DNA of 64,000 nucleotides from Candidatus Omnitrophota bacterium (lineage in GTDB: Bacteria > Omnitrophota > Gorgyraeia > Zapsychrales > Fredricksoniimonadaceae), in NCBI GenBank assembly GCA_013287965.1, contig JABDCU010000001.1, forward strand, positions 5,910-69,909, given 5' to 3'. The position numbers and the translations under genes were made by a program. Positions 1-39,607 of this stretch are shown in pieces; the first letter of the stretch is position 1, and each line of letters begins with the position of its first letter. The notes below the pieces were generated by a model. The model had not been told where the DNA came from, searched no databases, and saw only the letters and a program-made list of their open reading frames with translations.

Positions 1-376
1 CCACATTGCCGTTGGTCACCACCAAGCCGCCTTGCGGGGTGCTGGTGCCGATGCCGATGTTATTGCTTCCCGTCGTGGAGTAAACGATCCCCACAGCCGT
101 GGTCCATCCGCTTAAGCCGCCGGCTGTTGACCAGGTCACGTCCCCGGTGCTGTCCGTTGCTGTCAGAACATACCCTGGCGCCGCACCCTGGCCGCTCACC
201 GCCAAGCCCGTCGAACGCACCGTGCCTTGCACATCCAGCGTCTGGCCGGGCGATGCGGAGCCGATACCGACATTCATATGAATGCTGGTATTAAAAGGCA
301 TGAATGAGGCGGCCGCCACAGGCGTCAAAGCCAGCAGCACCCCAAGACCCAAGATTATTTTACGCACGGTGTTCAT
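1..376 (-). CDS. N-terminal roughly 125 aa of a second, paralogous giant fibre protein. It is partial and continues beyond the window start.
   Basis: Hand translation of the minus strand from the ATG near 376 gives MNTVRKIILGLGVLLALTPVAAA then SFMPFNTSIHMNVGIGSASPGQTLDVQGTVRSTGLAVSGQGAAPGYVLTATDSTGDVTWS... Nt 1-265 are about 90 percent identical to the 270-bp repeat units inside the giant gene, for example 8790-9060. The ORF track omits it because it is truncated by the window edge. Confidence 0.6.
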   Translation of the reverse strand, partial: MNTVRKIILGLGVLLALTPVAAASFMPFNTSIHMNVGIGSASPGQTLDVQGTVRSTGLAVSGQGAAPGYVLTATDSTGDVTWSTAGGLSGWTTAVGIVYSTTGSNNIGIGTSTPQGGLVVTNGNV

Positions 377-440
377 AAAGATTTCTTGACATCACCCTTC
401 AAAGACCTGCCCTTTTCAAACATTGGTCCCCTTAATTCTG

Positions 441-700
441 TTACTTACAGCAATTAACATACGCCGTATAACCTGCACTGTTGCAAGTTATCCCTTGCCC
501 GCTCATTTGCACGTCACCGGAAGTGGTGCCGTTTGATACATAGCATGACCACTTGATCATCACCTCACCGGCACTGCAAGACGCACTGCCGGCGCCGCTC
601 CTTATCGTGCAGGTCCAGTTTGTTGGAGTAGAACCCGCGGCATCCACATACCCCTTAGCCGCCGCATCAGTGAACGCCGTGGATGTGGCAAGGTCATTGT
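441..700. repeat. 3'-terminal module (C-terminal Cys-rich domain coding region) shared at about 90 percent nt identity with 1318-1580.
   Basis: Direct nucleotide comparison of the last roughly 260 nt of the peptidase gene with the last roughly 260 nt of the fibre gene. Confidence 0.85.
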
Positions 701-1271
701 TGTGTCCCTTAAATTCAATTTTTCCTAAGATATCTCTCTTGTCAATGAGGCCAAACCTGGTTGCATCCAAGCTGCCGGAAACCTGATTACCCATGATGAG
801 ATAGGTGTTTTCCGGAAGCACGGGATAGCTTTTAATATAAAGTTCAAGCATCCGGATATTAGACCGGGAGATTTGATAAAATTCGCCCCGGGAATTCTTT
901 AAGGGCTTATCATCAACCATGATCCGCCAGCTGTTTTGGTCCTTATTTTCCTTAAGATTCCACCTGTCCCTGCCAACTGCCTTAACGAGCTTGATAATAG
1001 GCGCGTCACGACCCGTGTATTTGTAGGCAATGATGTCCCCCCTTTCGACTGGATGGCAGTTATAGTATCCATAAACTAACTTTACCGTCTCACCGGGATA
1101 GATCAAAGGAGCTAAAGAATATCCACGCACCTGTTTTAATTCAACCGTGGTAATGCAGCTGCCGGAATTGTCCCCCAGCGGCTTGCCCTCTTGCGCCTTG
1201 ATGGGAGTGACTCCTGAACCAAAGCACAAGATAAATAAGATTAAGAAAGTCCTTAGTCTTTTTAATTTCAT
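441..1271 (-). CDS. Membrane-anchored S26-family (signal peptidase I-like, Ser/Lys dyad) peptidase fused to a C-terminal roughly 85-aa Cys-rich module that is shared with the giant fibre protein.
   Basis: N-terminal TM anchor TFLILFILCFGSGV. S26 boxes are present. The Ser box is GYSLAPLIYPGE, box C is GDIIAYKY, the Lys box is IIKLVKAVGRDRW, and box E is YLIMGNQVSGSLDATRFGLIDKRDILGKI. The C-terminal TNWTCTIRSG...SCSAGEVMIKWSCYV..GITCNSAGYTAYVNCCK is nearly identical to the last 85 aa of the 2679-aa ORF. Confidence 0.8.
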   Translation of the reverse strand: MKLKRLRTFLILFILCFGSGVTPIKAQEGKPLGDNSGSCITTVELKQVRGYSLAPLIYPGETVKLVYGYYNCHPVERGDIIAYKYTGRDAPIIKLVKAVGRDRWNLKENKDQNSWRIMVDDKPLKNSRGEFYQISRSNIRMLELYIKSYPVLPENTYLIMGNQVSGSLDATRFGLIDKRDILGKIEFKGHNNDLATSTAFTDAAAKGYVDAAGSTPTNWTCTIRSGAGSASCSAGEVMIKWSCYVSNGTTSGDVQMSGQGITCNSAGYTAYVNCCK

Positions 1272-1317
1272 ACTATTTATCCCAGAAATTTGTCATTAAA
1301 TGTGTCCGTCACCTTTA

Positions 1318-1580
1318 TTATTTACAACAATTAACATATGCCGTATAAGCCGCGCTGTTGCAAGTTATGCCTTGTCCGCTCATTTGCGCGTCACCGAAAG
1401 TGGTACCGTTGAGTACATAGCATGACCACGTGATCATCACCTCACCGGCACTGCAAGACGCGCTGGTATTGCCACTCCTTATCGTGCAAGTCCAGTTTGT
1501 GGGAGTAGCAGCCGCGGCATCCACATACCCCTTAGTCGCCGCGTCAGTGGACGCCGTGGGTGTGGCAAGGTTAACGATCT
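1318..1580. repeat. 3'-terminal module of the fibre gene. It is the partner of 441-700.
   Basis: See 441-700. Confidence 0.85.
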
Positions 1581-4500
1581 TTTGACTGCCCATGTCCAGC
1601 GCGCCGGCCGGCGCCCAGGTACCGATACCTACGTTGCCGTTGGTCACGACAAAGGCTCCCTGCGGAGTCGTCGTCCCAATGCCCACGTTGCCGTTGAGAT
1701 CAATGGACATCTTAACGCTTGACGGCAGGGCCGTAGCGCTGGAACTGACCTGAAAATCCATACTCCCGTACGCGCTCAAGCCATCTGAAATTTGCCAACG
1801 GCGGCTGTTGGCATTTCCCACCGTGTCCGTCAATAAGATGCCAGGGACAGTGGCCGCAGCCCCGGCAGATGAAGCGATCTCGAATATCCTGGTCGGGGCC
1901 GTAGTGCCGATACCCAGATTACCGCCTGATGTAATAGCCATCTTCGTTCCACTGTAATCAAACAAGAGATTGTTCCCGGAAACGTATTGCGTCCACAGGT
2001 TCGTTGAGGTCGTTCGATCGGCAAGCTGCAATTGCCCCAGCGATCCAAAAATGTTCACGCGGCCATTCAAAACGCTGTCGCCGTTTACATTAAATAACCC
2101 CGTCGTTCCGCCTTGCGTATAGGCGCTCGTCGTGCCGATGCCCACGTTGCCGTTTTGGTCGATACGCATGCGTTCTGTATAGGTTGATCCATCGGTGGCA
2201 GTCTTGAATACAATGACCGGGTTCCCTGCATTTTGATCGTTGGCCTGGACTGACAAACCATTGTATGTGCCGTCACCCCACTGCCTTATTTCACCCCAAA
2301 TGTTTGTAGCGTTTCGCTGAACTCTCACCGCCGCCGTATTGGAAGCGGCAGCGACTTGCAATAGGGCGCCCGGCGCCGCCGTGCCGATGCCCACGTTGCC
2401 AGCGGTTGTTATTCTCATATATTCCGTATTGTTTGTTCTCAAAACCAACGGATGGTTGGTGGCAGTACTTAAGTATCCTGCACTATCATCAGCTCCAAGA
2501 GTGGCGGTCACTGGTGTGCCAGTAGACGTCACAAAAATTGTTGGGGAACTTGATCCGCGTACATTAATTCCGCTGCTTGTAGTACTCCCAATATCAACTG
2601 TCAGCTTTTTGTCCGGCGCCGCGGACCCAATACCCACGTTACCAGCGCTGGTGATCCTCATCGCTTCAGTCTCATTCCCGGTATAAACTCTAAAATTATC
2701 ACCACTATCCATCGTTTGAATAAAACCGCCTGTTGTATCCACTCCGAATTCAGCTTTTGATCCGCTTGTATCGGTAACACGCACCGCAGACTGGCCGTTT
2801 CGTGCAATTTCGAGACCGCCTCCATTGATCGTTGGAACTGTCGTGCCAATGCCGACGTTGCCGGAGGCATTAATGGCAAGCCGGGCAGCGCTGGCAGTCT
2901 CATCATAAATAGTGAAAAGGCCGGAGCCGATCCCGCTGCCTGTGCCGTTGGAGAACAAGGTAAACGCCCTGCCCGCCGCGCTGGTATTGCTTAAGGTCAA
3001 CCCGGTATCCGTTGAAGTGCTGGTGATCTTGGCCATTCTGACCGCACTGGTGCTGCCTTCTAAAATAAAACCATTGTTCGCATCGTTATAAACATATAGT
3101 TTACTGCTGGGAGCCGCAGAACCGATGCCGACATTGTCGCTTGTGTCCATTACGATGCCGTCGCTGCCAGCCCCTCCGCTGGTGCCTGTTATTGAGAATT
3201 TCCCGTTACCTGCTCCCCCTGAAGAAATAAACCAGTCCTTGTACCCATAATTATTCAAATCTATGACAGATTTATCCCCCGTTGTCCCGCCGCGAAGATA
3301 AATAGTGTTGTCCCCGCTGTCGCCATCGTTCCCGAACCGAAGCGTGCTGCCTCCCACAAGGCTTAATTTTGCCAGCGGCGCTGTCTGCCCGATGCCCACG
3401 TCGCCGTCCGTCTGGATGGTCAATTTGGGAGCGCTGGGGATGTCGGCATTGGTGCCTATCTTGAATTTATGGCTGTCCGCGTTATCGATCCCTGCAGACC
3501 AATTTTGCTGGCCGGGAACGCTCCAAACGACCACAGGGTTATACGCACTGGCACCACCTGTGGTCAGCTGCAGAGCGGCATAAGAGCCCGATGTGTTGCT
3601 GATGTTCTTCATCAGGAAGATCATTCCACTGCCAGGGACTGATTTTTCCATATCAATGTCATACGTCGGTGCCCAGGTGCCGATGCCGATATTGCCGTTG
3701 GTCACGACGAGACCACCCTGCGGGGTGGTGGTGCCGATGCCGACGTTATCGTTCGTTGTTGTATTGGAACCTGAAAGCGTCCAGCCGCTGGCGGAAACTG
3801 TTCCCGTGATCGTCCCGCTGGCACGGATATTGCCCTGCACGTCGAGTGTGGCACCCGGAGCGATTGAGCCGATACCGATGTTACCGGTGCTTGGAATATA
3901 CATCCGCAAATTATTTCCACCGGTGGTGAGCAGGAAATTATTCCCGGAATCAATGACCTCATCTCCTAACACGTCATGGGTAACGATGTCATTATTCTGT
4001 GTGGATACGCCAAGATATGATGCGGTTGCAAAAGCAGAAGTAAAAGTTATATAGGGAGTGCTGCCATTCGTGGTACCGGTTATGTTTAATTTTGAAATCG
4101 GTAGTGTCGTGCCAATACCCACATTGCCGCTAAAATAGGAGACTCCCGTTGAATCAGATGCTAAAGCATAATTTGTCCCCACGCCTCCTGTCACTGAATT
4201 GCCGAGCCGCAAAATCATATTATTGGTAATGGTGCCATTTCCCGACCTGAACGACGGCTCAAGATCCAAGGTCGCGGCTGTCGTTAATGTGTATCCTGTG
4301 CCTGTGGTTTGGACCGTGGGCTGTTCGAAATAGTTAAAATAATGAGTGGCACTATTTCCAGAAAGCGTGTACACAGCGGGAACGATATCAAGCGCGGCAC
4401 CCGGCACTGTCGTGCCGATACCCACGTTGCCAGAAGCGATTGTCATGTCCGGAGAGCCGCCAACTGTGCCGAAATAAATGTTGCCGCTCCCGGAGCCGGT

Positions 4501-7500
4501 ATCAACCATTCCGCCTCCTGACCCGTCCAATCTAACTTCTGAAAGCCGTGCCCGGTTAAGTCCGTAAAGCGTTCCTGAATATCCCGAGGCGTAAGAGTAC
4601 AGGGCAGATTGGTCGGACTGATCATTTCTTGCTGACACTTCCGCAATACCAGTGGTTCCAGCATTCATGTTAGACACATCAAACCGTAAATTCCCTGCAA
4701 ATGACTCTTTTACCTGCAGCACCGTAGCCGGTGCCCAAGTGCCGATGCCCACGTTGCCATTGGTAACAATGAGGCCGCCTTGCGGGGTGCTGGTGCCGAT
4801 GCCGATATTGTTGCTGCCCGTCGTGGAATAGACAAGTCCGGTACCTGTGGTCCAGCCGCTCAAGCCGCCTGCTGTTGACCAGGTCACGTCCCCGGTGCTA
4901 TCCGTGGCTGTTAACACATAGCCAGGAGCCGCACCCTGTCCGCTTACCGCCAAGCCTGTTGAGCGTACTACTCCTTGGACGTCTAATTTCTGGCCGGGGG
5001 CTGTAGAACCGATGCCCACGTTGCCGGTGTTTAATATAGTCATCACAGAATTACTCAGAGTCGGATTTGAAGTATCGGCCGTACTGTTTTGAAGGAAATC
5101 AAATTCTCCTCGGTTGAAAGACCCTGTTGTCGTATACGTGATCGCGCCTTTGCCGCGATTGGCGTCAAAACTGTCTTCCGAGAACAAAATACCCGCACCG
5201 TTTCCAGTCGTAGCGTTACTTGCCGCTATCCTTATGGGATAATACAGACCAGCTGTGCTGCTCGCGTCAACATCTAATGTTCTGCCCGGATTCGTCGTGC
5301 CGATGCCCACGTTGCCGCCGTTGGGATTTAACAAAATATTGTAAGTCGCGGATAAATCACTGTAGCCTGTTGCCTGTAACCAATACGCACCTGTAGAATA
5401 ATAATTTCCAAAGTCAAGGACCCCGCCATCCCTGCCTCTTAGGCGCAGAAGTCCATAAGTTTGGGTCGTGCCGCTGTTGGCAGGCAGGCCGCCTACCAAA
5501 TGCTGGACTTCCAAAGTGGCTGCCGGCGTCACTGTCCCGACACCCACGTTGAGGGATGTCGCTGCGATGCGCATCGCTTCGGTAGGTGATCCGCCAACTC
5601 CCGCTGAAAATCTCAATGCCTGGTCACTTTCAACAGTCCCCACTGTAGATTGATTCCTAAAGTAAAGAGTCCTGTCTGTGCTGCCTGTACTATCCATCCA
5701 TGTATCTCCAAATACAGTAAGTTTTGCGCCTGTAGGGCTTGTTGTCCCGATGCCCACGTTGCCGGTGTTATCTATTCTCATGCGCTCGGCGTTGTTCGTG
5801 CCCAACAGCAGACTGGTGGCGCCGGCGGTTGTAAACCCGAAATCCGTGGAGCTTCCGTTGGTAAAAGTGTAATTGCCACTGCCGCCGTACCCAATATCTG
5901 AACCGGCAACCCTAAAAACTAAAGCCAATCTTGTCAGGCCATCCGTGATCAATGTATTATTCGAACCAACCAAATGAAGTTGCCCTCCCGGCGCCCAGGT
6001 GCCGATGCCCACATTGCCGTTGGTCACCACAAACCCACCCTGCGGGGTGTTGGTGCCGATGCCGACGTTTTGCCCGCTGCTGATGGTCATGGCACGCGTG
6101 CTGTTGGTATAGAACTCCATGGCATTATCATCCGGAGCGCCGTTATTGATGGAATAAGCGATCTTTCCCTTATTCATCGTTGTCGCGTCTCCGAATTGTA
6201 TTCCCGTATCAGCCCCGCCCGCGTTTTCCGCTTCCAATTGGAGTATGGCGTCATTGCCTGATTGCGCATGGACCCTTATGTAAGCATCCCCATTGTTTTT
6301 GATGTCAAGCAATTGCCCAGGCACCGCCGTGCCGATACCTACGTTGCCGTTGACTACCAATTTGCCGCTGAGGCCGGACGTGTAGCCGATGCCGACATTC
6401 TGTGCCGTGTCGATCGCAAGCGCTGACGATCCGCCGGTTTGAAGCACAAGCGAACGGACCGTGCCCGTGCCGGCGGCGTCCGAATTGATCATGAGATTGC
6501 CTCCGCTTGTTCCGGTTACCAAGCGCTCATAATTTGAAGCGTCCGTGTATGTCTTGTAGACGCTGAATGTGGTCGTGCTGTTGGACCGGACGGCAACGCT
6601 GTTGCCGCCATCCCTGAAAAGATACGCGTCCGGCGAAGCAACTCCCGAACTGCCCCATTGGAAACTATTGGCCGAAGATAAAATGATATTGCCACCCTGC
6701 ACAACCAATGCCGCGCTCGGTGCCCAGGTGCCGATGCCCACATTGCCGTTGGTCACCACCAGGCCGCCCTGCGGGGTGCTGGTGCCGATGCCGATATTGT
6801 TACTGCCCGTCGTAGAATAGACAATGCCGGTGCCTGTGGTCCATCCGCTTAAGCCGCCTGCGGTTGACCATGTTACGTCTCCGGTGCTGTCAGTCGCTGT
6901 CAGCACATATCCGGGCGCCGCGCCCTGGCCGCTCACCGCCAATCCCGTCGAGCGCACCGTGCCTTGCACGTCGAGTTTCTGGCCGGGGGCTGTCGAGCCA
7001 ATACCCACATTACCGCCTGTCAAAACAGTTAACGCCTGTATGCCACCAGCCCCATTTGGAAATACACCAAAACCACTACTGCCCACAAATCCTGAGTACC
7101 CTAACCGTCCATAAGCGTCTGTGCCAAGATTCGTGATGCCTGCCCTGCCATAGACCGTCACACCCAAGCTCACGCCATCGTTTGAACCCTGGACCTTCAA
7201 ATCATAAGCATTGCCTGTGTTCGTAAAGTCTCCGATAGCGGTATTTCCTGAAACTTGAAGAGGATATTGCGGGTTGAACGTGCCTAGACCGACACTGCCG
7301 GAAACGATCAAACCGCTGGAAGGAGCAGTATTCAACCCGGCGTACGCGCCGATACCCACAGACCCGTTAACATCCAATTTATTAAGAGGTATCGTACCTC
7401 CATTGCCGATACCCACATTGCTGTCCCCTCCCCTGATCACAATGGCTGGGCTTGAAAACGTAAGTCCGGCTGTGACTGTTGAAGGGGTGATCTCAAAAGC

Positions 7501-9357
7501 GTTATTCAGGTTAATATTGTTGCCGATCTGCCACTTAAAATGAGTGCTGGACGTATCGTCATAAATCATTCTTCCGCCGCCGCCGTTGGAAATATGTAAA
7601 GGGGCCTGCGGGGTAAGGGTGCCGATGCCAACGTTGCCGTTGCTGTCAATGGTCATTCGGACGGCATTATTAGTGGCCAGCTGTAACGGATTCGAACTTG
7701 TTTGAAATCCAATAATGCTTGCGTAAGGTAAGTCTCCAGTAATAAAACCTCCACCGGCACTGCTTTCTACCCCCAAGACCAATGTTCCACCGGTGTTTGT
7801 TTCCTGTATCCCGACACGATTGGTCCCTGTCATTGATCTCATGGCAAAATCACCTTCAGCCGCTCTGAAGTCTATAGGATACTGCGTCGTCCAGGTACCA
7901 ATGCCCACGTTACCGTTGGTCACCACGAAGCCGGCCTGCGGAGTTGAGGTGCCGATACCGATGTTATTGCTTCCCGTCGTTGAATACACAAGTCCTGTGC
8001 CCGTGGTCCATCCGCTTAAGCCCCCTGCTGTTGACCAGGTCACGTCGCCGGTACTGTCGGTTGCTGTCAGCACATAGCCAGGAGCCGCACCCTGCCCGCT
8101 CACCGCCAAGCCCGTTGAACGCACCGTGCCTTGCACGTCGAGCTCTTGGCCAGGGGCATTGGAGCCAATACCAACGTTGCCCGGCAGGACGATCAGCGAT
8201 CCGCCAGGTGTCGTGGTGCCGATGCCCACGTTGCCGGACGAATCTATTCTCAATCTTTCATTAGAATTGGTGCTGAAAGCCAAAGTATGCGAAGCAGGAC
8301 GGAACATCCCGTTATTTGTATCGCCACCAAAAGTGAATATGGGAGCACCCGCCGTCCCGCCGCCATTACTGCCCGCGATAACACGGTTCCATATACTCGC
8401 ATCTGTTGAGAAAACGAAATTACCTTGGTCAAAAGAACCTCCTCCATAAACCTGTAACGCGTATCCCGGCGCCCAGGTGCCGATGCCCACGTTACCGTTG
8501 GTCACGACAAGACCACCTTGCGGGGTCGTGGTACCGATGCCGACATTGCCGGCAAAACTGCTTGCATTAGTACCTACCGAGATACTTCTCCATCGCAATG
8601 GCGTCGCTGTATTACCTAAATCGTAAACATTATCGCTCGATGGATAAAACGGATCGGCGGAACGCACGGAACTAAAACCCCCGCCGAGCCGTAATAAACC
8701 TGACCCTAGATCATCCACGGCAACTTGGTTATTAAGAAGCATCTGTGGGCCAAAATTTACGCTGCCGTTCACATCAAGTATCTTGCCTGGCGCCCACGTG
8801 CCGATGCCTACATTGCCGTTGGTTACAACAAACCCACCCTGCGGAGTTGATGTGCCGATGCCGATATTGTTGCTTCCCGTCGTGGAATAGACAAGGCCGG
8901 TGCCTGTGGTCCATCCGCTTAAGCCCCCTGCTGTTGACCAGGTCACGTCCCCGGTGCTGTCGGTCGCTGTCAGCACATAGCCGGGAGCCGCTCCCTGACC
9001 GCTCACTGCTAAGCCCGTTGAGCGGATAGTGCCTTGCACGTCGAGCGTCTGGCCGGGTGTCGCGGAGCCGATGCCCACGTTCATATGAACGCTGGTGTTA
9101 AAAGGCATGAATGAGGCGGACGCGGGCAAGGCAAACGCAAGGCAAAGCAAACCAGCGATGATCAAGCTCATTAATTTTGGTTTTGCCGCCCACTTCTTGC
9201 GGTCTTCCTCTATTAATTCCCTTAAGATCGTGACAAAAGACGGATCTTCCCCCCTCATTTTTCGCTCGAGGGCCTTGATCTTCAAGTACTGGTATTGGTC
9301 CCGTGTGAGATCAATAGAAGTCTTGATCATCCGCTCTGTGGGTTTGTTCTTTGGCAT
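1318..9357 (-). CDS. Giant (2679-codon ORF) secreted repetitive fibre or adhesin-like protein with NVGIGT-type tail-fibre-like beta-helix repeats. The mature fibre gene probably starts at the internal Met near 9171 (MSLIIAGLLCLAFALPASA signal peptide). The first 62 codons are an RHH-like module.
   Basis: Tens of repeats have consensus GNVGIGT(T/S)(T/A)P...(K)LDV(Q/N)G. Composition is strongly G/T/S/N-rich. An internal Sec signal peptide is followed by the SFMPFNTSVHMNVGIGSATPGQ motif, also found in the paralog at 1-376. There are four near-identical 90-aa blocks (KLDVQGTVRSTGLAVSGQGAAPGYVLTATDSTGDVTWSTAGGLSGWTTGTGLVYSTTGSNNIGIGTSTPQGG). A C-terminal Cys-rich module ends NCCK. Confidence 0.85.
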   Translation of the reverse strand: MPKNKPTERMIKTSIDLTRDQYQYLKIKALERKMRGEDPSFVTILRELIEEDRKKWAAKPKLMSLIIAGLLCLAFALPASASFMPFNTSVHMNVGIGSATPGQTLDVQGTIRSTGLAVSGQGAAPGYVLTATDSTGDVTWSTAGGLSGWTTGTGLVYSTTGSNNIGIGTSTPQGGFVVTNGNVGIGTWAPGKILDVNGSVNFGPQMLLNNQVAVDDLGSGLLRLGGGFSSVRSADPFYPSSDNVYDLGNTATPLRWRSISVGTNASSFAGNVGIGTTTPQGGLVVTNGNVGIGTWAPGYALQVYGGGSFDQGNFVFSTDASIWNRVIAGSNGGGTAGAPIFTFGGDTNNGMFRPASHTLAFSTNSNERLRIDSSGNVGIGTTTPGGSLIVLPGNVGIGSNAPGQELDVQGTVRSTGLAVSGQGAAPGYVLTATDSTGDVTWSTAGGLSGWTTGTGLVYSTTGSNNIGIGTSTPQAGFVVTNGNVGIGTWTTQYPIDFRAAEGDFAMRSMTGTNRVGIQETNTGGTLVLGVESSAGGGFITGDLPYASIIGFQTSSNPLQLATNNAVRMTIDSNGNVGIGTLTPQAPLHISNGGGGRMIYDDTSSTHFKWQIGNNINLNNAFEITPSTVTAGLTFSSPAIVIRGGDSNVGIGNGGTIPLNKLDVNGSVGIGAYAGLNTAPSSGLIVSGSVGLGTFNPQYPLQVSGNTAIGDFTNTGNAYDLKVQGSNDGVSLGVTVYGRAGITNLGTDAYGRLGYSGFVGSSGFGVFPNGAGGIQALTVLTGGNVGIGSTAPGQKLDVQGTVRSTGLAVSGQGAAPGYVLTATDSTGDVTWSTAGGLSGWTTGTGIVYSTTGSNNIGIGTSTPQGGLVVTNGNVGIGTWAPSAALVVQGGNIILSSANSFQWGSSGVASPDAYLFRDGGNSVAVRSNSTTTFSVYKTYTDASNYERLVTGTSGGNLMINSDAAGTGTVRSLVLQTGGSSALAIDTAQNVGIGYTSGLSGKLVVNGNVGIGTAVPGQLLDIKNNGDAYIRVHAQSGNDAILQLEAENAGGADTGIQFGDATTMNKGKIAYSINNGAPDDNAMEFYTNSTRAMTISSGQNVGIGTNTPQGGFVVTNGNVGIGTWAPGGQLHLVGSNNTLITDGLTRLALVFRVAGSDIGYGGSGNYTFTNGSSTDFGFTTAGATSLLLGTNNAERMRIDNTGNVGIGTTSPTGAKLTVFGDTWMDSTGSTDRTLYFRNQSTVGTVESDQALRFSAGVGGSPTEAMRIAATSLNVGVGTVTPAATLEVQHLVGGLPANSGTTQTYGLLRLRGRDGGVLDFGNYYSTGAYWLQATGYSDLSATYNILLNPNGGNVGIGTTNPGRTLDVDASSTAGLYYPIRIAASNATTGNGAGILFSEDSFDANRGKGAITYTTTGSFNRGEFDFLQNSTADTSNPTLSNSVMTILNTGNVGIGSTAPGQKLDVQGVVRSTGLAVSGQGAAPGYVLTATDSTGDVTWSTAGGLSGWTTGTGLVYSTTGSNNIGIGTSTPQGGLIVTNGNVGIGTWAPATVLQVKESFAGNLRFDVSNMNAGTTGIAEVSARNDQSDQSALYSYASGYSGTLYGLNRARLSEVRLDGSGGGMVDTGSGSGNIYFGTVGGSPDMTIASGNVGIGTTVPGAALDIVPAVYTLSGNSATHYFNYFEQPTVQTTGTGYTLTTAATLDLEPSFRSGNGTITNNMILRLGNSVTGGVGTNYALASDSTGVSYFSGNVGIGTTLPISKLNITGTTNGSTPYITFTSAFATASYLGVSTQNNDIVTHDVLGDEVIDSGNNFLLTTGGNNLRMYIPSTGNIGIGSIAPGATLDVQGNIRASGTITGTVSASGWTLSGSNTTTNDNVGIGTTTPQGGLVVTNGNIGIGTWAPTYDIDMEKSVPGSGMIFLMKNISNTSGSYAALQLTTGGASAYNPVVVWSVPGQQNWSAGIDNADSHKFKIGTNADIPSAPKLTIQTDGDVGIGQTAPLAKLSLVGGSTLRFGNDGDSGDNTIYLRGGTTGDKSVIDLNNYGYKDWFISSGGAGNGKFSITGTSGGAGSDGIVMDTSDNVGIGSAAPSSKLYVYNDANNGFILEGSTSAVRMAKITSTSTDTGLTLSNTSAAGRAFTLFSNGTGSGIGSGLFTIYDETASAARLAINASGNVGIGTTVPTINGGGLEIARNGQSAVRVTDTSGSKAEFGVDTTGGFIQTMDSGDNFRVYTGNETEAMRITSAGNVGIGSAAPDKKLTVDIGSTTSSGINVRGSSSPTIFVTSTGTPVTATLGADDSAGYLSTATNHPLVLRTNNTEYMRITTAGNVGIGTAAPGALLQVAAASNTAAVRVQRNATNIWGEIRQWGDGTYNGLSVQANDQNAGNPVIVFKTATDGSTYTERMRIDQNGNVGIGTTSAYTQGGTTGLFNVNGDSVLNGRVNIFGSLGQLQLADRTTSTNLWTQYVSGNNLLFDYSGTKMAITSGGNLGIGTTAPTRIFEIASSAGAAATVPGILLTDTVGNANSRRWQISDGLSAYGSMDFQVSSSATALPSSVKMSIDLNGNVGIGTTTPQGAFVVTNGNVGIGTWAPAGALDMGSQKIVNLATPTASTDAATKGYVDAAAATPTNWTCTIRSGNTSASCSAGEVMITWSCYVLNGTTFGDAQMSGQGITCNSAAYTAYVNCCK
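4733..5030. repeat. Intragenic 270-300 bp repeat unit, copy 4.
   Basis: See copy 1. It encodes the fourth KLDVQGVVRSTGLAVSGQGAAPGYVLTATDSTGDVTWSTAGGLSGWTTGTGLVYSTTGSNNIGIGTSTPQGG block. Confidence 0.8.
6718..7018. repeat. Intragenic 270-300 bp repeat unit, copy 3.
   Basis: See copy 1. It is marked by the antisense ORF 6824..7114 with VVHPLKPPAVDHVTSPVLSVAVSTYPGAAPWPLTANPVERTVPCTSS. Confidence 0.8.
7884..8180. repeat. Intragenic 270-300 bp repeat unit, copy 2.
   Basis: See copy 1. It is marked by the antisense ORF 7793..8077 with VVHPLKPPAVDQVTSPVLSVAVST. Confidence 0.8.
8790..9085. repeat. Intragenic 270-300 bp repeat unit, copy 1 of 4 in the fibre gene. A fifth copy is in the paralog at 1-265.
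   Basis: Near-identical DNA gcccacgtgccgatgcc...ccgcttaagcc...gttgaccaggtcacgtccccggtgctgtc... is shared among 8790-9085, 7884-8180, 6718-7018, 4733-5030 and 1-265. Confidence 0.8.
9172..9357 (-). other. RHH-like small-protein module copy A (62 codons). It is in frame with the fibre gene and not separated from it by a stop codon.
   Basis: MPKNKPTERMIKTSIDLTRDQYQYLKIKALERKMRGEDPSFVTILRELIEEDRKKW, then AAKPKL, then the fibre signal peptide. It is about 85 percent nt identical to 9367-9552. Confidence 0.45.
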
Positions 9358-9366
9358 TTTGTTACG

Positions 9367-9552
9367 TTACTTTTGTTTTTCTTTCCATTTTTTACGGTCT
9401 TCTTCTATTAATTCCCTAAGAATAGTGACAAAAGACGGGTCCTCCCCGCGCATTTTCCGCTCGAGGGCCTTGATCTTGAGATACTGGTATTGATCGCTGG
9501 TCAGATCAATAGAAGTTTTGATCATCCGTTCTGTGGGTTTATTTTTTGCCAT
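9367..9552 (-). CDS. Small (61 aa) putative ribbon-helix-helix / CopG-like DNA-binding protein, copy B of a tandem duplicate.
   Basis: MAKNKPTERMIKTSIDLTSDQYQYLKIKALERKMRGEDPSFVTILRELIEEDRKKWKEKQK. It has a beta-strand (RMIKTSIDL), helix (DQYQYLKIKALERKM), helix (SFVTILRELIEE) pattern typical of an RHH fold. It has its own stop codon and lies upstream of the fibre gene. Confidence 0.6.
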   Translation of the reverse strand: MAKNKPTERMIKTSIDLTSDQYQYLKIKALERKMRGEDPSFVTILRELIEEDRKKWKEKQK

Positions 9553-10168: not shown

Positions 10169-11347
10169 TTAATGTTCCCTTGAAATCGAACTTTCCGAAT
10201 GCAGGGAACAATAAGTCTCCAAAGCTTTACGCCAGGGAAGAACAACAACATCATTCTTTAATTTACGGGAACTGGTTTCTCTGAGAGACGCTATATAAAG
10301 CTTAACTTTAGGAAATCTTTTACGGAAAGCCATTACTGCGGCCTCAGATATGGTCTCTGAAGATGTTTTACATTCAAATGCCATCAACGGCCCCTTAGGG
10401 CCGGTGACCAACAGATCAACTTCCTGCTTGCCTTCTCTCCAAAAAGAAATTTCATCGGGTTTTTCATAGTAATCCCGCAGCCATCTTAATTCATTATAAA
10501 AAAATGTTTCAAATAAATGCCCTTTTTCCTGCGGTGTCGGCGGATCGACCAAACGGTTTTGCAACGCACGAACGACCCCGCAATCAAAAAAATAAAACTT
10601 GGGACGGGCTTTTTTACGTTCACTCCGGTCCCATGGCCATAAAAACGATCCCAAAAGAGTATCTTCCAGGATAGAAAAATATTCTTTGACCGTGCTCATG
10701 GGTACCGCGGAATCACGGGCAATAGACGAAAACTCTATTGTCTCCCCATTCATTTGCGCTGCTACATTTAAAAACCTTTGGAAAGCGCCGATATTACGGG
10801 TCAACGCTTCAGCCTGGACCTCTTCTTTAATATAAACCGTACCATAAGTTTTTAAACGGCGTCGAACGTCCTCTTCTTTGTCCTCTAAAAGAAAAGAGAC
10901 TATGAGCGGTAATGTCCCATAAGATAATGCCTTATCAATATCGAAATCACGGCCGATTTCTATGCTGGTCAAAGGATGCAGCCTCAAGTCAAGGGCCCTG
11001 CCTCCTAAAAGATTGGCGCTTCCACGCCGCAATTTTCTGGCACTTGAGCCGGAAAGGATAAATCTTAATTTTAATTCTTCAATCCCCTTCTGAACATAAT
11101 CTAAAAGCACGGGAACACGCTGAATTTCATCCACAATGACCAGTTGACCGCTCTTTAAAACCCTTAATTGTTCCCAAAATTCTTTTGGTGAGCGTTTAAA
11201 CTTAAGTTCTTCTTCAGGATCTAAAAGGTCAACGAATAGATCTGCCTTTAGACGGCGCAATAAATAGGTCTTTCCCGTCATGCGCGGCCCAAACAAAAAA
11301 AACGAACCTGAAATATGCTCTAACTTTAATAATCGCTGAAAGTCCAT
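10169..11347 (-). CDS. AAA+ ATPase of the AAA_14 / DUF4143 family.
   Basis: A Walker A-like FLFGPRMTGKTYLL, Walker B LVIVDEIQRV, and a C-terminal DUF4143-like region. Confidence 0.75.
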   Translation of the reverse strand: MDFQRLLKLEHISGSFFLFGPRMTGKTYLLRRLKADLFVDLLDPEEELKFKRSPKEFWEQLRVLKSGQLVIVDEIQRVPVLLDYVQKGIEELKLRFILSGSSARKLRRGSANLLGGRALDLRLHPLTSIEIGRDFDIDKALSYGTLPLIVSFLLEDKEEDVRRRLKTYGTVYIKEEVQAEALTRNIGAFQRFLNVAAQMNGETIEFSSIARDSAVPMSTVKEYFSILEDTLLGSFLWPWDRSERKKARPKFYFFDCGVVRALQNRLVDPPTPQEKGHLFETFFYNELRWLRDYYEKPDEISFWREGKQEVDLLVTGPKGPLMAFECKTSSETISEAAVMAFRKRFPKVKLYIASLRETSSRKLKNDVVVLPWRKALETYCSLHSESSISREH

Positions 11348-11414
11348 GTTTAAAGAATAACATATTTATGTTATTTGTCAATATTAAATAACATATTGTT
11401 GTTATATGCCTTAA

Positions 11415-13181
11415 TTACTGGTGGCGGCCGTTTGCTAAACGGCAGAGTTTTATGTCCCTGGCGGCTTCGGGGTTTAACGGGTCTATGCTCAAGACCTGCT
11501 GAAAATCTTTGAGGGCCTCCTGCGCGCGGCCTGCTTGCATCCACAACATCCCCCGCTCCATATACGCATCCTCAAATTGCGGCTCAAGCGCGATCGCGCG
11601 CCCCAGGTCATCCAGGGCTTCCTTATAATTATGCTGGGTTTGGTATACCCACGCCCTTTTCACATAGGTTGAAAAATAATTGGGGTCCATGGCGATCGAC
11701 TTATTTAGGTCTTCCAGGGCTTGGGCGGTCCGGCCTTGCTGGCCATAAATGATCCCGCGGTTCTCATAGGTAATATTATTAGGGCTGATGGCAATGGCAC
11801 GGCTTAAATAATAAATAGACGCGTCTAGCCGCCCTAAAGAGCCATACACCCTTCCCAAACTCGCGTTCACACGGGCCTTGCCCGGCGACTCCTTGATATT
11901 GTTTTCCCAAAGCGCTAACTCATTGGCCCAGACTTTATTGCGCTGAAAACTCATAAAGGCCAAAACAAAGACCAGGCAGTATAAAAAAAACCGGGACACA
12001 TTGACTTTTTGTATACCCAAAAAGTCAATGTGTCCCGGTTTTTTCCACACCAAAACGGACAAGGCAGACACGAAGGCCAAAATGAAGCCAAATGAGATGA
12101 GATACAATTTATGCTCAAAGATCACATTGAATCGGGGCACTAAATTGACAGAAAATGTGATCAGCATCCATGCCAAGCCAAACGCTATTAAAGGAAAGCT
12201 GCGGCGCAGCTTGATGATCAGGAAAATAAACCCCAAGATCACGCCTAATCCTGCCAAGGTCAACGGCGGATGGAGAAAACCGGTTGAGGCCGGATAATCG
12301 TAATCCACATTTTGATGGATGGGCAAGACCAAAAGGCGAAGGAAGGTCAAAAAAACCCTCATCTGGGTCAACACATAATGCGCCGTGGTAAAGACATCCC
12401 CATCGTGAGATTCAGAAGGGATTGTTTTTGAAAAATCAACCAACTGTAAATGCAGCATTTTTGAGAACAACAGGCACAATAAAAATCCGGCGGCGAGAAT
12501 TGTTAAATAATGTTTGTTATGGATTCCCGCCTTCGCGGGAATGACAGTGTTTAATAATATCCATTCGCAAGCCAGGACCATCACCGGCACAGTCATGATC
12601 ACTTCCTTGGTTAAAACCCCTAAAATGGTTGCGAGCCCTGCCAGCCCAAATAATGCCATTTGGTGTGTCTTGACCGTTGACAGGCGCGCGCGCAGATAAA
12701 AATATATTGTCCCGAAATAAAACACAGCGGCCATGGATTCAAAACGCTGGGTGATATAGGTCACGGCCTGGGTTTGGCATGGATGGACCAAAAAAAGGAG
12801 AGCGATTATGAAAGGAAGATCTTTGTGGATTCCCGCTTGCGCAGGAATGACAGTGCGCGCAGTGATCTTAAAAAGCAAGTCTGCCAGGGCCCACACTAAT
12901 CCCGTTGCGATAAGATGCACGATAAAATTAAAAATGTGATATCCCCGGGCATCAAGCTGGTTGAAATAATAATTTAACGCGAAGGAATACATGCCCACCA
13001 GACGGGTCAAGGGAAAGGTATGCCACATCATATGGAAATTGCTGAAATTCTTGATAAAAGGATTGGCAACGATGAAGAGATTGTCGTCAAAAACAAAACC
13101 GAATCGGAAGGTCTGGCCGTAGACCAAAAGTCCCAGCAGGATGAGGGCCAAGCAGCGTAAGAATATTTTATTGATGCGCAT
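11415..13181 (-). CDS. Polytopic membrane protein (TMTC / PMT_2-like N-terminal domain with FVFDD motif) with C-terminal TPR repeats. It carries three in-frame palindromic element insertions.
   Basis: About 10 predicted TM helices, then 4-5 TPR repeats (GRVYGSLGRLDASIYYLSRAIAISP...). The REP-1-derived peptides TVIPAQAGIHKD and TVIPAKAGIHNK and the REP-2-derived KKPGHIDFLGIQKVNVSRFF are visible in the translation. Confidence 0.7.
   Translation of the reverse strand: MRINKIFLRCLALILLGLLVYGQTFRFGFVFDDNLFIVANPFIKNFSNFHMMWHTFPLTRLVGMYSFALNYYFNQLDARGYHIFNFIVHLIATGLVWALADLLFKITARTVIPAQAGIHKDLPFIIALLFLVHPCQTQAVTYITQRFESMAAVFYFGTIYFYLRARLSTVKTHQMALFGLAGLATILGVLTKEVIMTVPVMVLACEWILLNTVIPAKAGIHNKHYLTILAAGFLLCLLFSKMLHLQLVDFSKTIPSESHDGDVFTTAHYVLTQMRVFLTFLRLLVLPIHQNVDYDYPASTGFLHPPLTLAGLGVILGFIFLIIKLRRSFPLIAFGLAWMLITFSVNLVPRFNVIFEHKLYLISFGFILAFVSALSVLVWKKPGHIDFLGIQKVNVSRFFLYCLVFVLAFMSFQRNKVWANELALWENNIKESPGKARVNASLGRVYGSLGRLDASIYYLSRAIAISPNNITYENRGIIYGQQGRTAQALEDLNKSIAMDPNYFSTYVKRAWVYQTQHNYKEALDDLGRAIALEPQFEDAYMERGMLWMQAGRAQEALKDFQQVLSIDPLNPEAARDIKLCRLANGRHQ
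11983..12046. repeat. REP-2 hairpin element copy A, located inside ORF 11415..13181 at the TM/TPR domain junction and read through in frame.
   Basis: aaaaaaaaccgggacacattgactttttgtatacccaaaaagtcaatgtgtcccggtttttt. Translated as KKPGHIDFLGIQKVNVSRFF. Confidence 0.8.
12519..12549. repeat. REP-1 palindromic element copy (tggattcccgcCttcgcgggaatgacag consensus).
   Basis: Seen directly. Other copies are at about 12826-12855, 14211-14240, 23529-23557, 52749-52778, 54790-54818 (degenerate) and 55596-55625. Confidence 0.85.
12826..12855. repeat. REP-1 element copy.
   Basis: tggattcccgcttgcgcaggaatgacagtg. Confidence 0.8.
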
Positions 13182-14238
13182 GTCTTAGCTGGCCACAGGC
13201 GGCGTTCACGTCTTTGCCTCTCGGCGTGCGGATAGTGGCATGGACACCGCTGTCTTCAAGGCTGTCTCTAAAGGCAGTCATTTCCTTGCCGGTAGGTGTT
13301 TGGTGCCCGAATTCTGAAACAGGATTATAGGGGATAAGGTTCATTTTGCAGATGATCCCTTTAAAAGCTTTTTTCAAACTCGCCACGGCGTGCGGCGTGC
13401 ACGTGACATCCTTAATGAGGATATACTCGAACGTTATCTGCCGGTTGGTTTTGCGGACGTAGTCACGGCAGGCCGCGATCAATTCATCAAACGGGTATTT
13501 TTTATTGACCGGCATGAGCACATCGCGGGAAGGATTATCATACCCGTGCAGGGAAATGGCCAATTCCACCTGCAAGCCCTCTTGGGCCAATTCCCTGATC
13601 TTCGGGACAACTCCGACGGTGGAGATCGTGATATGCCGCGCCCCTATATTAATGCCCTTGTCCGCATTGATGATGCGCACTGCTTTCATCAAATTAATAA
13701 AATTATCCAAAGGCTCCCCCGTTCCCATGAACACGATATTGGTCAACGGCCTCTTATGTTTCAAGGCCTCTTCCTTGACATGCAAAACCTGGGTGACGAT
13801 CTCAGCACAGCTAAGATTTCTCTTCCAGCCGCCGATACCGCTGGCGCAAAACTTGCAGCCGAACTTACAGCCGGCCTGGGTCGAAATACACGCGGTTGTC
13901 CTGGTTGCGGTGGGGATCAGGACACTCTCGATCTTCTCATGGTCATGAAGGTCAAAGAGAAATTTGGTGGTGCCGTCCTCGGAGACCAGCTTTTGGGCGA
14001 TCTCATTGGTTTTAAGGACAAGGTCTTTCTTCAAACGGTCCCTTAATCCTTTAGGGACATTGGTCATCGCGTCAAAACCCCAAGCACCTTTTTGATAGAT
14101 CCACTGGAAGACCTGGTCAGCGCGAAAAGGCTCTGCATCAACAGAGCGCAAGTACGCCGTCAATTCTTCCAAAGACAAATCACGTATATCTGGATGAGGG
14201 GTCACGTTTATGGATTCCCGCTTTCGCGGGAATGACAA
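13168..14238 (-). CDS. rlmN: 23S rRNA (adenine2503-C2)-methyltransferase RlmN (radical SAM). The annotated TTG start lies inside a REP-1 element, so the true start is probably downstream.
   Basis: CKFGCKFCASG radical-SAM CxxxCxxC motif. The RlmN/Cfr family has conserved GTGEP, ISLHG and a C-terminal Cys. The N-terminus MSFPRKRESI is a REP translation. Confidence 0.85.
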   Translation of the reverse strand: MSFPRKRESINVTPHPDIRDLSLEELTAYLRSVDAEPFRADQVFQWIYQKGAWGFDAMTNVPKGLRDRLKKDLVLKTNEIAQKLVSEDGTTKFLFDLHDHEKIESVLIPTATRTTACISTQAGCKFGCKFCASGIGGWKRNLSCAEIVTQVLHVKEEALKHKRPLTNIVFMGTGEPLDNFINLMKAVRIINADKGINIGARHITISTVGVVPKIRELAQEGLQVELAISLHGYDNPSRDVLMPVNKKYPFDELIAACRDYVRKTNRQITFEYILIKDVTCTPHAVASLKKAFKGIICKMNLIPYNPVSEFGHQTPTGKEMTAFRDSLEDSGVHATIRTPRGKDVNAACGQLRHAHQ

Positions 14239-14240
14239 TG
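14211..14240. repeat. REP-1 element copy at the 5' end of rlmN.
   Basis: tggattcccgctttcgcgggaatgacaatg. Confidence 0.85.
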
Positions 14241-14241
14241 T

Positions 14242-15192
14242 TTACTTCTCAACAAACTCCCCGATGTCACGGTATTTTTTGTAGCGGGCGTCTAAAAGCT
14301 CTTTGGGACTTAACGTGGACGCTTTCTTAAAATATTTAATGAGCGCTGCCTTCAAAAGAAGCGCTGATTCCTGCGGCTCCCGGTGGGCGCCGCCCAAAGG
14401 TTCAGGGATGATCTCGTCCACAATATTGAATTTGATCAGGTCTTCCCCGTGCAGCTTCAGGGCTTCCGCGGCTTGCGGGGCTTTTAAAGAAGAGCGCCAA
14501 AGGATGGACGCGCAACCCTCGGGGGAAATGACAGAATAATAGGCGTGCTGTAAAATAAAAACACGGTCAGCCACTCCTATCCCCAGGGCCCCGCCGCTGC
14601 CGCCCTCGCCGATGATCACCGCGGCAATAGGTGTCCTGATGCCGGCCATATCACGCAAATTTTCCGCGATGGCCTGGGCCTGGCCGCGTTCTTCCGCCCC
14701 GATGCCCGGATAGGCGCCCGGCGTGTCGATCAGGCAAATGACCGGCACATGGAATTTTTCCGCCAGGCGCATCAGGCGCATAGCCTTGCGGTAGCCTTCC
14801 GGATGGGCGCAGCCGAAATTGCGCAACACATTTTCTTTGACATCACGGCCCTTCTGGTGGCCGATGACCATCACCTTCTGCCCGTCGATCTTGGCAAAGC
14901 CGCCGATCATGGCCTTGTCATCGGCAAAAAGCCGGTCCCCGTGCAATTCCAGGAATTCATCGGTCATCATGCGGATATAATCAAACGTATAGGGGCGTTT
15001 GGGATGGCGGGCGATCTGGATGCGCTGCCAGGATGTCATCTTGTTATAGACATCGTTTTTGAGTTTCTCGAGCTTGGATTCCAGGCGCTTGATCTCCGGC
15101 TCAAGGGTCACCCGCTTGGAGCCCATTTGGCGCAGGTCATTGATCTTATGTTCAAGCTCGAGGATCGGCTTTTCAAAATCCAGGATGGCCAT
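14242..15192 (-). CDS. accA: Acetyl-CoA carboxylase carboxyltransferase subunit alpha.
   Basis: Strong similarity to AccA along its length (ARHPKRPYTFDYI, DTPGAYPGIGAEERGQ, IGEGGSGGALGIG, SVISPEGCASILW). Confidence 0.92.
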   Translation of the reverse strand: MAILDFEKPILELEHKINDLRQMGSKRVTLEPEIKRLESKLEKLKNDVYNKMTSWQRIQIARHPKRPYTFDYIRMMTDEFLELHGDRLFADDKAMIGGFAKIDGQKVMVIGHQKGRDVKENVLRNFGCAHPEGYRKAMRLMRLAEKFHVPVICLIDTPGAYPGIGAEERGQAQAIAENLRDMAGIRTPIAAVIIGEGGSGGALGIGVADRVFILQHAYYSVISPEGCASILWRSSLKAPQAAEALKLHGEDLIKFNIVDEIIPEPLGGAHREPQESALLLKAALIKYFKKASTLSPKELLDARYKKYRDIGEFVEK

Positions 15193-39502: not shown

Positions 39503-39538
39503 AGATAATACAAATATACCATATAATTTCAGGGTTAG

Positions 39539-39607
39539 CAAAAAACCGGGACACATTGAATTAAATTAAATTTTACATGAAACTTTAATTCAATGTGTCC
39601 CGGTTTT
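39539..39607. repeat. REP-2 hairpin element copy C (aaaaaaccgggacacattgaatt...aattcaatgtgtcccggttttt). Terminator-like, lying between rpe and the pilin-like gene.
   Basis: Perfect inverted repeat with roughly 20-bp arms flanked by an A-run and a T-run. The same core aaccgggacacattgac is found at 11983-12046 and 24039-24094. Confidence 0.8.

Follow-up and report, generated by a model that had tools for sequence, protein, structure and literature searches.

Gene order and the shared module

The 64,000-nucleotide (nt) stretch considered here, hereafter the window, comes from a Candidatus Omnitrophota bacterium (GenBank assembly GCA_013287965.1, contig JABDCU010000001.1, positions 5,910 to 69,909) and carries a gene in which an S26 peptidase runs on, in frame, into a C-terminal module that it shares with a neighboring giant fibre protein. 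The peptidase gene lies between the gene for that fibre (fibre A) and the gene for a second one (fibre B), which starts at position 376. The spacers of 46 and 64 nt give the three genes an operon-like layout, and no terminator-like site was found on the coding strand between them (Table 1).

That the open reading frames (ORFs) 441..1271 and 1318..9357 have near-identical C-terminal ends had been noticed in an original prediction made from the sequence, and MAFFT, blastn and a repeat finder agree on it. Positions 441-694 align with 1318-1571, both on the minus strand, over 254 nt without gaps and at 88.2% identity (blastn E = 4.6e-91, search within the window). The module is thus as real as claimed and the shared peptide had been given correctly, while the rounded figures of about 260 nt and about 90% give way to these exact ones. 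At the protein level the module spans 84 codons with 84.5% amino-acid identity. On its 5' side the identity falls at once to background (17-40% per 30-nt block), and the 3' flanks past the two stop codons are unrelated. Neither tblastn nor blastn found a third copy in the window, so that the copies number two. No other repeat pair at the locus is as similar (88%, compared with 74-83% for the fibre-internal repeats). The module holds six Cys, not the eight originally counted; of the seven Cys in the 2679 residues of the fibre ORF, six fall within the last 56 residues and the seventh in the signal peptide.

The upstream parts of the two proteins are unrelated, again as predicted: one is a Peptidase_S26 domain at residues 42-187 and the other an NVGIGT-repeat fibre that matches PHROG tail-fibre families. 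The peptidase scores 48.3 bits against Pfam PF10502 (Peptidase_S26; cut-off 22.9) and 50.6 bits against NCBIfam TIGR02227 (signal peptidase I; cut-off 47). This generic signal peptidase I model is its best NCBIfam match and the only one above cut-off, weak matches to TraF models (E 6e-4 to 2e-2) lying far below theirs. Ser52 (box GxSLxP) and Lys94 (box IIKxVKA), which form the putative catalytic dyad judging from the alignment, are invariant among 23 sequences, together with D169 and R172. At the N-terminus of the peptidase a hydrophobic stretch precedes V/I-x-A, as it also does in the closest homologues. In an AlphaFold2 model of the full-length protein, built with only two head sequences, the predicted local distance difference test score (pLDDT) exceeds 90 over most of residues ~40-160 of the S26 domain, with 10-residue block means of 78-97 up to residue 189 (78-88 for residues 161-189); the C-terminal extension is placed apart from the S26 domain, and the head is modeled at low confidence.

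Table 1. Features of the fusion gene and of the adjoining fibre genes (window coordinates; aa, amino acids)
Feature	Position	Strand	Basis
S26 peptidase::fibre-head fusion gene, 276 aa	441..1271	-	ORF, translation, Pfam, NCBIfam
N-terminal signal peptide or anchor of the peptidase (MKLKRLRTFLILFILCFGSGVTPIKA / QEG)	1194..1271	-	sequence reading; cleavage inferred
S26 catalytic domain, residues 42-187	711..1148	-	Pfam envelope
Fusion junction, residues 188-192 KGHNN; ancestral stop expected here	696..710	-	homologue C-termini
Neck motif copy in the peptidase (DLATSTAFTDAAAKGYVDAAGSTP)	624..695	-	alignment, profile search
Six-Cys head copy in the peptidase (TNWTC...YVNCCK)	444..623	-	alignment
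Giant fibre (A) ORF, 2679 aa	1318..9357	-	ORF, PHROG matches
Neck motif at the fibre C-terminus (NLATPTASTDAATKGYVDAAAATP)	1501..1572	-	alignment, profile search
Six-Cys head at the fibre C-terminus, predicted resistin-like beta-sandwich	1321..1500	-	
Second fibre (B) gene, 5' part, runs off the window	2..376	-	translation

Related peptidases end where the module begins

With one exception, 22 protein homologues of the peptidase (33-75% identity, 162-219 aa) stop 2-10 residues past the conserved DILGKV; the exception, P0017, has a longer tail that is unrelated and also devoid of the head. The closest homologue, P0002 (locus L039, 75% identical), has GGAAAAGTGAAGCAGTAA in place of the window's GGAAAAATTGAATTTAAGGGA..., and its stop codon falls where the window protein runs on as FKGHNND-LATST... 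Because P0002 ends at this point, the junction can be placed no more than a few codons away from the ancestral stop.

The head is likewise absent from 26 delimited peptidases (172-265 aa) in 23 of 28 loci taken from GTDB species representatives (Patescibacteria lineages, Omnitrophota, Elusimicrobia and others), the nearest of which belong to Omnitrophota, Patescibacteria and other metagenome-assembled genomes (MAGs) at no more than 64% identity, and from the 6 peptidases delimited in metagenome loci. In all, about 56 related peptidases have no head. The fusion protein, identical to P0001, is the sole member of its 90% cluster, compared with 29 members for PyrG and 100 for AccA, both encoded on this contig. 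The gene thus joins an S26 peptidase of the fibre-associated kind in frame to a fibre head, and this fusion is lineage-specific, found in this genome alone.

Within the peptidase gene, a sigma-70-like match (TTGACA, 16 nt, AAAAAT) is present at 718-745 on the minus strand, a short way upstream of the junction; it could be left over from the promoter of a downstream head gene that was once separate. We dropped it as evidence, since three such sites occur where 1.8 are expected and no in-frame start follows it.

A common neck and a rare head

The module consists of one unit of a fibre neck motif (LATPTxxxDAxTKGYVD) followed by a rare head of 60 residues. An exhaustive search of 1.84 billion representative proteins with a profile of the module returned 431 matches, nearly all of them to profile positions 1-35 and often many per protein, which identifies the first 24-30 residues (LATPTASTDAATKGYVD...) as a widespread neck unit. 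A word-indexed search with the whole module as query returned only 2 proteins. Because the neck motif dominated the whole-module search, the head profile was searched separately, and its matches are few: P0026, P0081, P0130, P0142, P0145 and P0177-P0180, together with ORFs of loci L034, L040, L041, L043, L044, L045/46 and L047. These other carriers range from 94 to 710 aa, and in every one the head is C-terminal after a YVD neck, typically closing with TAYANCC plus one residue. Given so few carriers, their spread of lengths and the constant position of the head, the latter is a rare mobile tip borne on stalks of very different length.

Throughout the head family six Cys are invariant, spaced as C-x10-C-x10-C-x19-C-x10-CC-x1-end, and W, G and AY positions vary little or not at all. 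The peptidase copy keeps all of them, with no frameshift and no stop. Its neck has S for the conserved P and A for the conserved T/N, substitutions unique in the family. A phage origin of the head was considered and rejected: it has no significant match in BFVD and no relative in IMG/VR contigs.

Predicted fold of the head

As the original prediction had proposed, the structure of the module was modeled, and AlphaFold2 (8-sequence alignment, monomer) returns an all-beta, six-Cys domain after the fibre neck motif, with pLDDT 75-88 over residues 31-91; the neck itself (pLDDT ~41-42) is not confidently modeled. In Foldseek comparisons the top three matches are resistin/RELM-beta and ranks 4-24 are PCSK9 (E ~5e-3, template modeling score ~0.5). 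The fold of the head is accordingly predicted to be closest to the disulfide-rich beta-sandwich of resistin, RELM-beta and the PCSK9 C-terminal domain (CTD), with three predicted disulfides.

The resistin/RELM signature comprises 10-11 Cys and ends in CC-x(3-6)-end; the head, despite its similar predicted beta-sandwich, has six Cys and ends in CC-x1-end. No Pfam family, Resistin included, matches any of 7 heads at E values up to 10, and hmmsearch of the head against PDB sequences gave no resistin match. An hhalign comparison with a resistin alignment, whose sequences were verified against PDB 1rfx, 1rgx and 1rh7, was insignificant (E 0.07, probability 0.8%). A sequence link between head and resistin finds no support in these results, and the likeness of fold alone stands. 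Resistin and RELM-beta are vertebrate host-defence and signaling proteins, and both permeabilise bacterial membranes (PMC8253364; PMC13647132).

S26 genes beside fibre genes in other genomes

Fibre motifs occur in 18 of the 48 ORFs immediately adjacent, on the same strand, to the peptidases and in 12 of the 433 other ORFs of the same loci (odds ratio 21, Fisher p = 1.4e-12). In many of the adjacent ORFs a YVD neck and a Cys-rich C-terminus follow an N-terminus that is either a membrane anchor or type-IV-pilin-like. The divergent S26 subfamily is thus shown to be a conserved neighbor of fibre and head genes in Patescibacteria, Omnitrophota and other MAGs. The association also holds in the other direction: where a head-family gene has sufficient flanking sequence, an S26 gene usually adjoins it, the exception being that of L043.

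An unfused version of the window architecture is seen in L034 (JGI 3300027863), where positions 344-6366 hold a 1131-aa fibre with GNVGIGT repeats and then two tandem pairs of S26 and small-head genes; here a small head-protein gene begins 37 nt after an S26 gene. In L040 a head protein precedes the S26 gene, and in L045/46 the head-protein gene overlaps the S26 gene that comes after it, with the gene of a type II/IV secretion ATPase next in order.

The tips vary from one locus to the next. Next to the closest peptidase homologue, the fibre fragment has a Peptidase_S74 chaperone domain at its end, and fibre genes beside other related peptidases have other tips, including other Cys-rich ends; it follows that tip types differ between loci. 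In this sense the modular tip of the original prediction stands, as a C-terminal element that is modular on an evolutionary time scale, but the window holds no array of alternative cassettes.

Some further observations concern the flanks of these loci. At 8221-12668 of L046 a protein with GW(A/I)WSxNIGWISF repeats is encoded before the head and S26 genes and a PilB-like ATPase, and L001 (7707-9866) has a comparable repeat protein ahead of its fibre/S26 pair, a layout which hints at a link between the fibres and type IV pilus machinery in Patescibacteria-like genomes. In the region of the P0002 peptidase and the S74-ended fibre fragment that follows it (L038 137-1035; L039 1-1566), the ORFs before the peptidase look by eye like fragments of an IS30-like transposase. 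Downstream of the L001 peptidase, at 10819-14592, a 1257-aa ORF unrelated to the present finding reads by eye as an isoleucyl-tRNA synthetase whose interior carries a large insertion similar to a histidine-phosphatase domain.

Age and selection

Codon comparisons of the duplicated segments at the locus are given in Table 2. For the module, the bootstrap 95% interval of omega is 0.11-0.64 and the binomial p value of the synonymous excess is 0.002. The 30 differences in 254 nt (31 in 252 in the codon alignment) show an even spread. No identical run is longer than 31 nt, with a chance run estimated at ~26 nt; neither run length nor the spread of differences gives any sign of a conversion tract in the pair. 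By these rates the head pair is the youngest duplication at the locus, yet not a recent one. The same counts show that the head has been under purifying selection since the duplication, and the neck looks relaxed, its omega of ~1.2 resting on few sites.

Table 2. Synonymous (Sd) and nonsynonymous (Nd) differences, the corresponding rates (dS, dN) and their ratio (omega) for duplicated segments at the locus
Pair	Sd	Nd	dS	dN	omega
Whole module, 84 codons	15	16	0.31	0.088	0.28
Head only	13	10	0.45	0.074	0.16
Neck only	2	6	0.105	0.126	~1.2
Fibre A/B N-termini	40	11	0.85	0.051	0.06
Duplicated small upstream genes	21	5	1.3	0.038	0.03

The fibre genes and the rest of the window

The true start of fibre A is likely the ATG at 9171 (MSLIIAG..., signal peptide ...ALPASA/SFMPFNTS). 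The protein contains 37 N[VIL]G[IV]G repeats, mostly NVGIGT, and a single YVD motif at residue 2608. It matches the PHROG tail-fibre families phrog_9942 (5.6e-69) and phrog_18345 (4.1e-65), and its ORF has no Pfam match. Past canonical A-x-A/S sites, fibres A and B both begin their mature chain with SFMPFNTS..., and over 100 codons these N-termini share 83% of their nucleotides.

A block of about 300 nt (…LDVQGTVRSTGLAVSGQGAAPGYVLTATDSTGDVTWSTAGG…NIGIGTSTPQGG…) recurs at 3-302 in fibre B and at 4751-5050, 6740-7039, 7907-8206 and 8810-9109 in fibre A. Its copies share 74-83% nucleotide identity, and the pair at the N-termini of A and B is nearly identical in protein (omega 0.06). These blocks look like old duplications under strong purifying selection, not like products of concerted evolution.

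Upstream of fibre A, a 61-aa gene (MAKNKPTERMIKTSIDLT...) that resembles a ribbon-helix-helix protein by eye only, with no Pfam match, is tandemly duplicated at 9367-9552 and 9190-9357, both on the minus strand. The latter copy is stopless and runs in frame into the fibre signal peptide (…KKWAAKPKL-MSLIIAG…), a second in-frame fusion at the locus. As its protein is strongly conserved between the two copies (dS 1.3, omega 0.03), it is probably still a functional small gene.

Elsewhere in the window lie genes for RlmN, AccA, an L,D-transpeptidase, CarB, PyrG and a GGDEF/EAL protein. Phage DNA as the source of the window was considered and ruled out, since CarB, PyrG, AccA, RlmN and the GGDEF/EAL protein mark it as bacterial chromosome. 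At 38006-39556, on the minus strand, a 516-aa ORF with 61 Cys and an N-terminal class III (prepilin-type) signal peptide (PF04021, E 2e-5) looks like a very Cys-rich, pilin-like surface protein.

Interpretation of the fusion

On balance, we consider it fairly probable that the gene is a Rosetta-stone fusion, in which an S26 peptidase dedicated to fibres is joined to a fibre head that tethers or targets the enzyme to fibre tips. In this regard, the presence of a head on this peptidase and on none of its approximately 56 relatives argues that peptidase and fibre tips probably work together. The A-x-A/S sites of the fibres and the conserved neighborhood suggest that the peptidase cleaves the signal peptides of exported fibres, and it would be the dedicated maturation enzyme of its neighbors A and B. 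The fused head may then serve as an oligomerisation or targeting domain which, through head-head association or through binding of the same ligand, would place the enzyme at the fibre heads.

As to origin, the most likely event seems to be a small deletion by which the peptidase became joined to the 3' portion of a head-bearing gene directly downstream. Starting from an arrangement like that of L034, the loss of the stop codon, the spacer and 45-50 membrane-anchor codons would yield exactly the window architecture; alternatively, a duplicate of the fibre 3' end may have been inserted. After this old event (dS 0.3-0.45), purifying selection would have kept the head, and the neck, deprived of a stalk, would have drifted.

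Several points weigh against a working partnership of enzyme and tips. The omega of the module (0.28) is above that of the other paralogous modules at the locus (0.03-0.06), and the peptidase copy may be partially relaxed, an outgroup being needed to assign the changes to one copy. Head-head association and ligand binding are suppositions set beside monomeric models. The S26 subfamily could act on substrates other than fibres. In the clade closest to the window the N-terminus of the peptidase resembles a cleavable signal peptide, and the enzyme would then be soluble, unlike classical membrane-anchored signal peptidases. Finally, the copy number of the module refers to the 64-kb window, and fibre B is known from its 5' part.

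The same relaxation could mean that the extension is a functionless relic, a tolerated read-through into a fibre 3' fragment left by a deletion or duplication. The fusion is unique among the related peptidases, the peptidase neck has lost conserved residues (P to S, T to A) at an omega of ~1.2, and the module evolves less constrainedly than the other modules at the locus, all of which a relic would explain. What speaks for function is the head itself, with an omega of 0.16 after a dS of ~0.45, its six Cys, W, G and AY intact, its reading frame free of frameshifts and stops, and the synonymous excess (p = 0.002); we therefore regard a relic as unlikely. The original prediction had taken the identity of the copies as a mark of recent duplication or ongoing gene conversion, that is, of a tip cassette actively swapped between genes. 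The module is indeed the most similar repeat pair at the locus, its dS of 0.31 lies below those of the fibre A/B N-termini (0.85) and the small upstream genes (1.3), and different tips are found on fibre genes beside related peptidases. A dS of 0.31, or 0.45 for the head, is nevertheless not recent, the differences are evenly spread with a longest run close to chance length, two copies and no silent cassette array are present in the window, and the homology ends exactly at the stop codon and the neck, between unrelated flanks. This account is not supported by the data and seems quite improbable to us.

An enzyme and an adhesin-like protein that share nothing but a C-terminal domain of ~80 aa also call to mind the C-terminal sorting or anchoring signals common to otherwise unrelated secreted proteins, such as the type IX secretion system (T9SS) CTD or PEP-CTERM tags. 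Neither the two proteins nor the isolated heads match a Pfam or NCBIfam sorting domain, however, and only two carriers occur in the window. The head is otherwise confined to fibre-like proteins, after a neck, including small N-terminally anchored ones, some of whose neighbors have type-IV-pilin-like N-termini. Since these carriers are anchored at the N-terminus, their head is distal and not at the anchor; its predicted resistin-like fold also fits poorly with a tag, and a sorting role is in our view highly improbable. A misjoining of peptidase and fibre 3' end during assembly, foreseen in the original prediction as a possible refutation, has in its favor that the contig is metagenome-assembled and the fibre region repetitive, that an independent Logan assembly of SRR8431262 (a 3.1-kb contig that carries the identical AAA gene) breaks at the fibre start, and that no second genome holds the fusion. 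The absence of the module from related peptidases, which was to be the sign of such a chimera in close strains, is found here among relatives of at most 75% identity, which are not close strains. The copies differ at 30 of 254 positions (12%), hence the one linked to the peptidase is a distinct sequence; the upstream junction is in frame and in unique sequence, outside the repeat; and the pattern of 13 synonymous against 10 nonsynonymous differences in the head would not be expected from a misjoin. A chimera is in our view extremely improbable.

It is, lastly, quite improbable that the head is a genuine prokaryotic relative of resistin, RELM and the PCSK9 CTD that binds or perturbs the envelope of other cells, with the fusion acting as a tip-targeted protease on the surface of a partner or prey. 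If this were true, the head would be the business end of the fibres of ultra-small or predatory bacteria.

Relation to known systems

Among the mosaic adhesive trimer (MAT) fibres of Bdellovibrio, an S74 chaperone closes some members, and others carry diverse adhesive tips (PMC10769870). Like the window fibres, MAT and phage tail fibres have a signal peptide and a conserved N-terminal module, after which a long repetitive stalk leads to a C-terminal tip that can be exchanged (PMC10769870). They differ in that the window fibres are paired with an S26 gene whose product itself carries the tip, on which the accessible portions of the MAT report are silent (PMC10769870). In line with a MAT-type or tail-fibre assignment, our fibres show a PHROG match, a signal peptide, a common N-terminal module (100 residues in A and B) and variable tips. 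Their own tip sets them apart, being a 60-residue, six-Cys head not found in BFVD models or IMG/VR contigs.

A second parallel is offered by SipW and TasA/TapA of Bacillus subtilis, where an extra type-I signal peptidase gene stands in an operon with the secreted fibre protein that is processed. Similarly, S26 genes of the window type are associated with fibre genes whose products have A-x-A/S sites, a gene-based link to a presumed substrate. SipW is an enzyme of the ER/archaeal type, whereas the window subfamily has the bacterial Ser/Lys pattern. The TraF-type S26 peptidases of conjugative pili are likewise small enzymes dedicated to one filament subunit; the window peptidase matches TraF weakly, and there are no conjugation genes near it.

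To our knowledge, no fusion of a signal peptidase to a domain of its putative substrate has been known so far. In the open-access literature we found no description of the S26/fibre pairing, of a bacterial resistin-like tip or of a tip-bearing peptidase. The fusion is a new architecture built from known kinds of parts.

Fibres with exchangeable tips serve in cell recognition by phages, by predatory bacteria and probably by episymbiotic ultra-small bacteria. To these the present locus adds a rare type of tip, with a predicted fold otherwise known from vertebrate resistin-like host-defence proteins, and a widespread, apparently undescribed pairing of a divergent S26 peptidase with fibre and tip genes in Patescibacteria, Omnitrophota and other MAGs. 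As a natural Rosetta-stone fusion, it argues for physical cooperation of the peptidase with the tips, and the 276-aa fusion protein, which could be expressed, would provide a direct handle on what this conserved peptidase does for the fibres.

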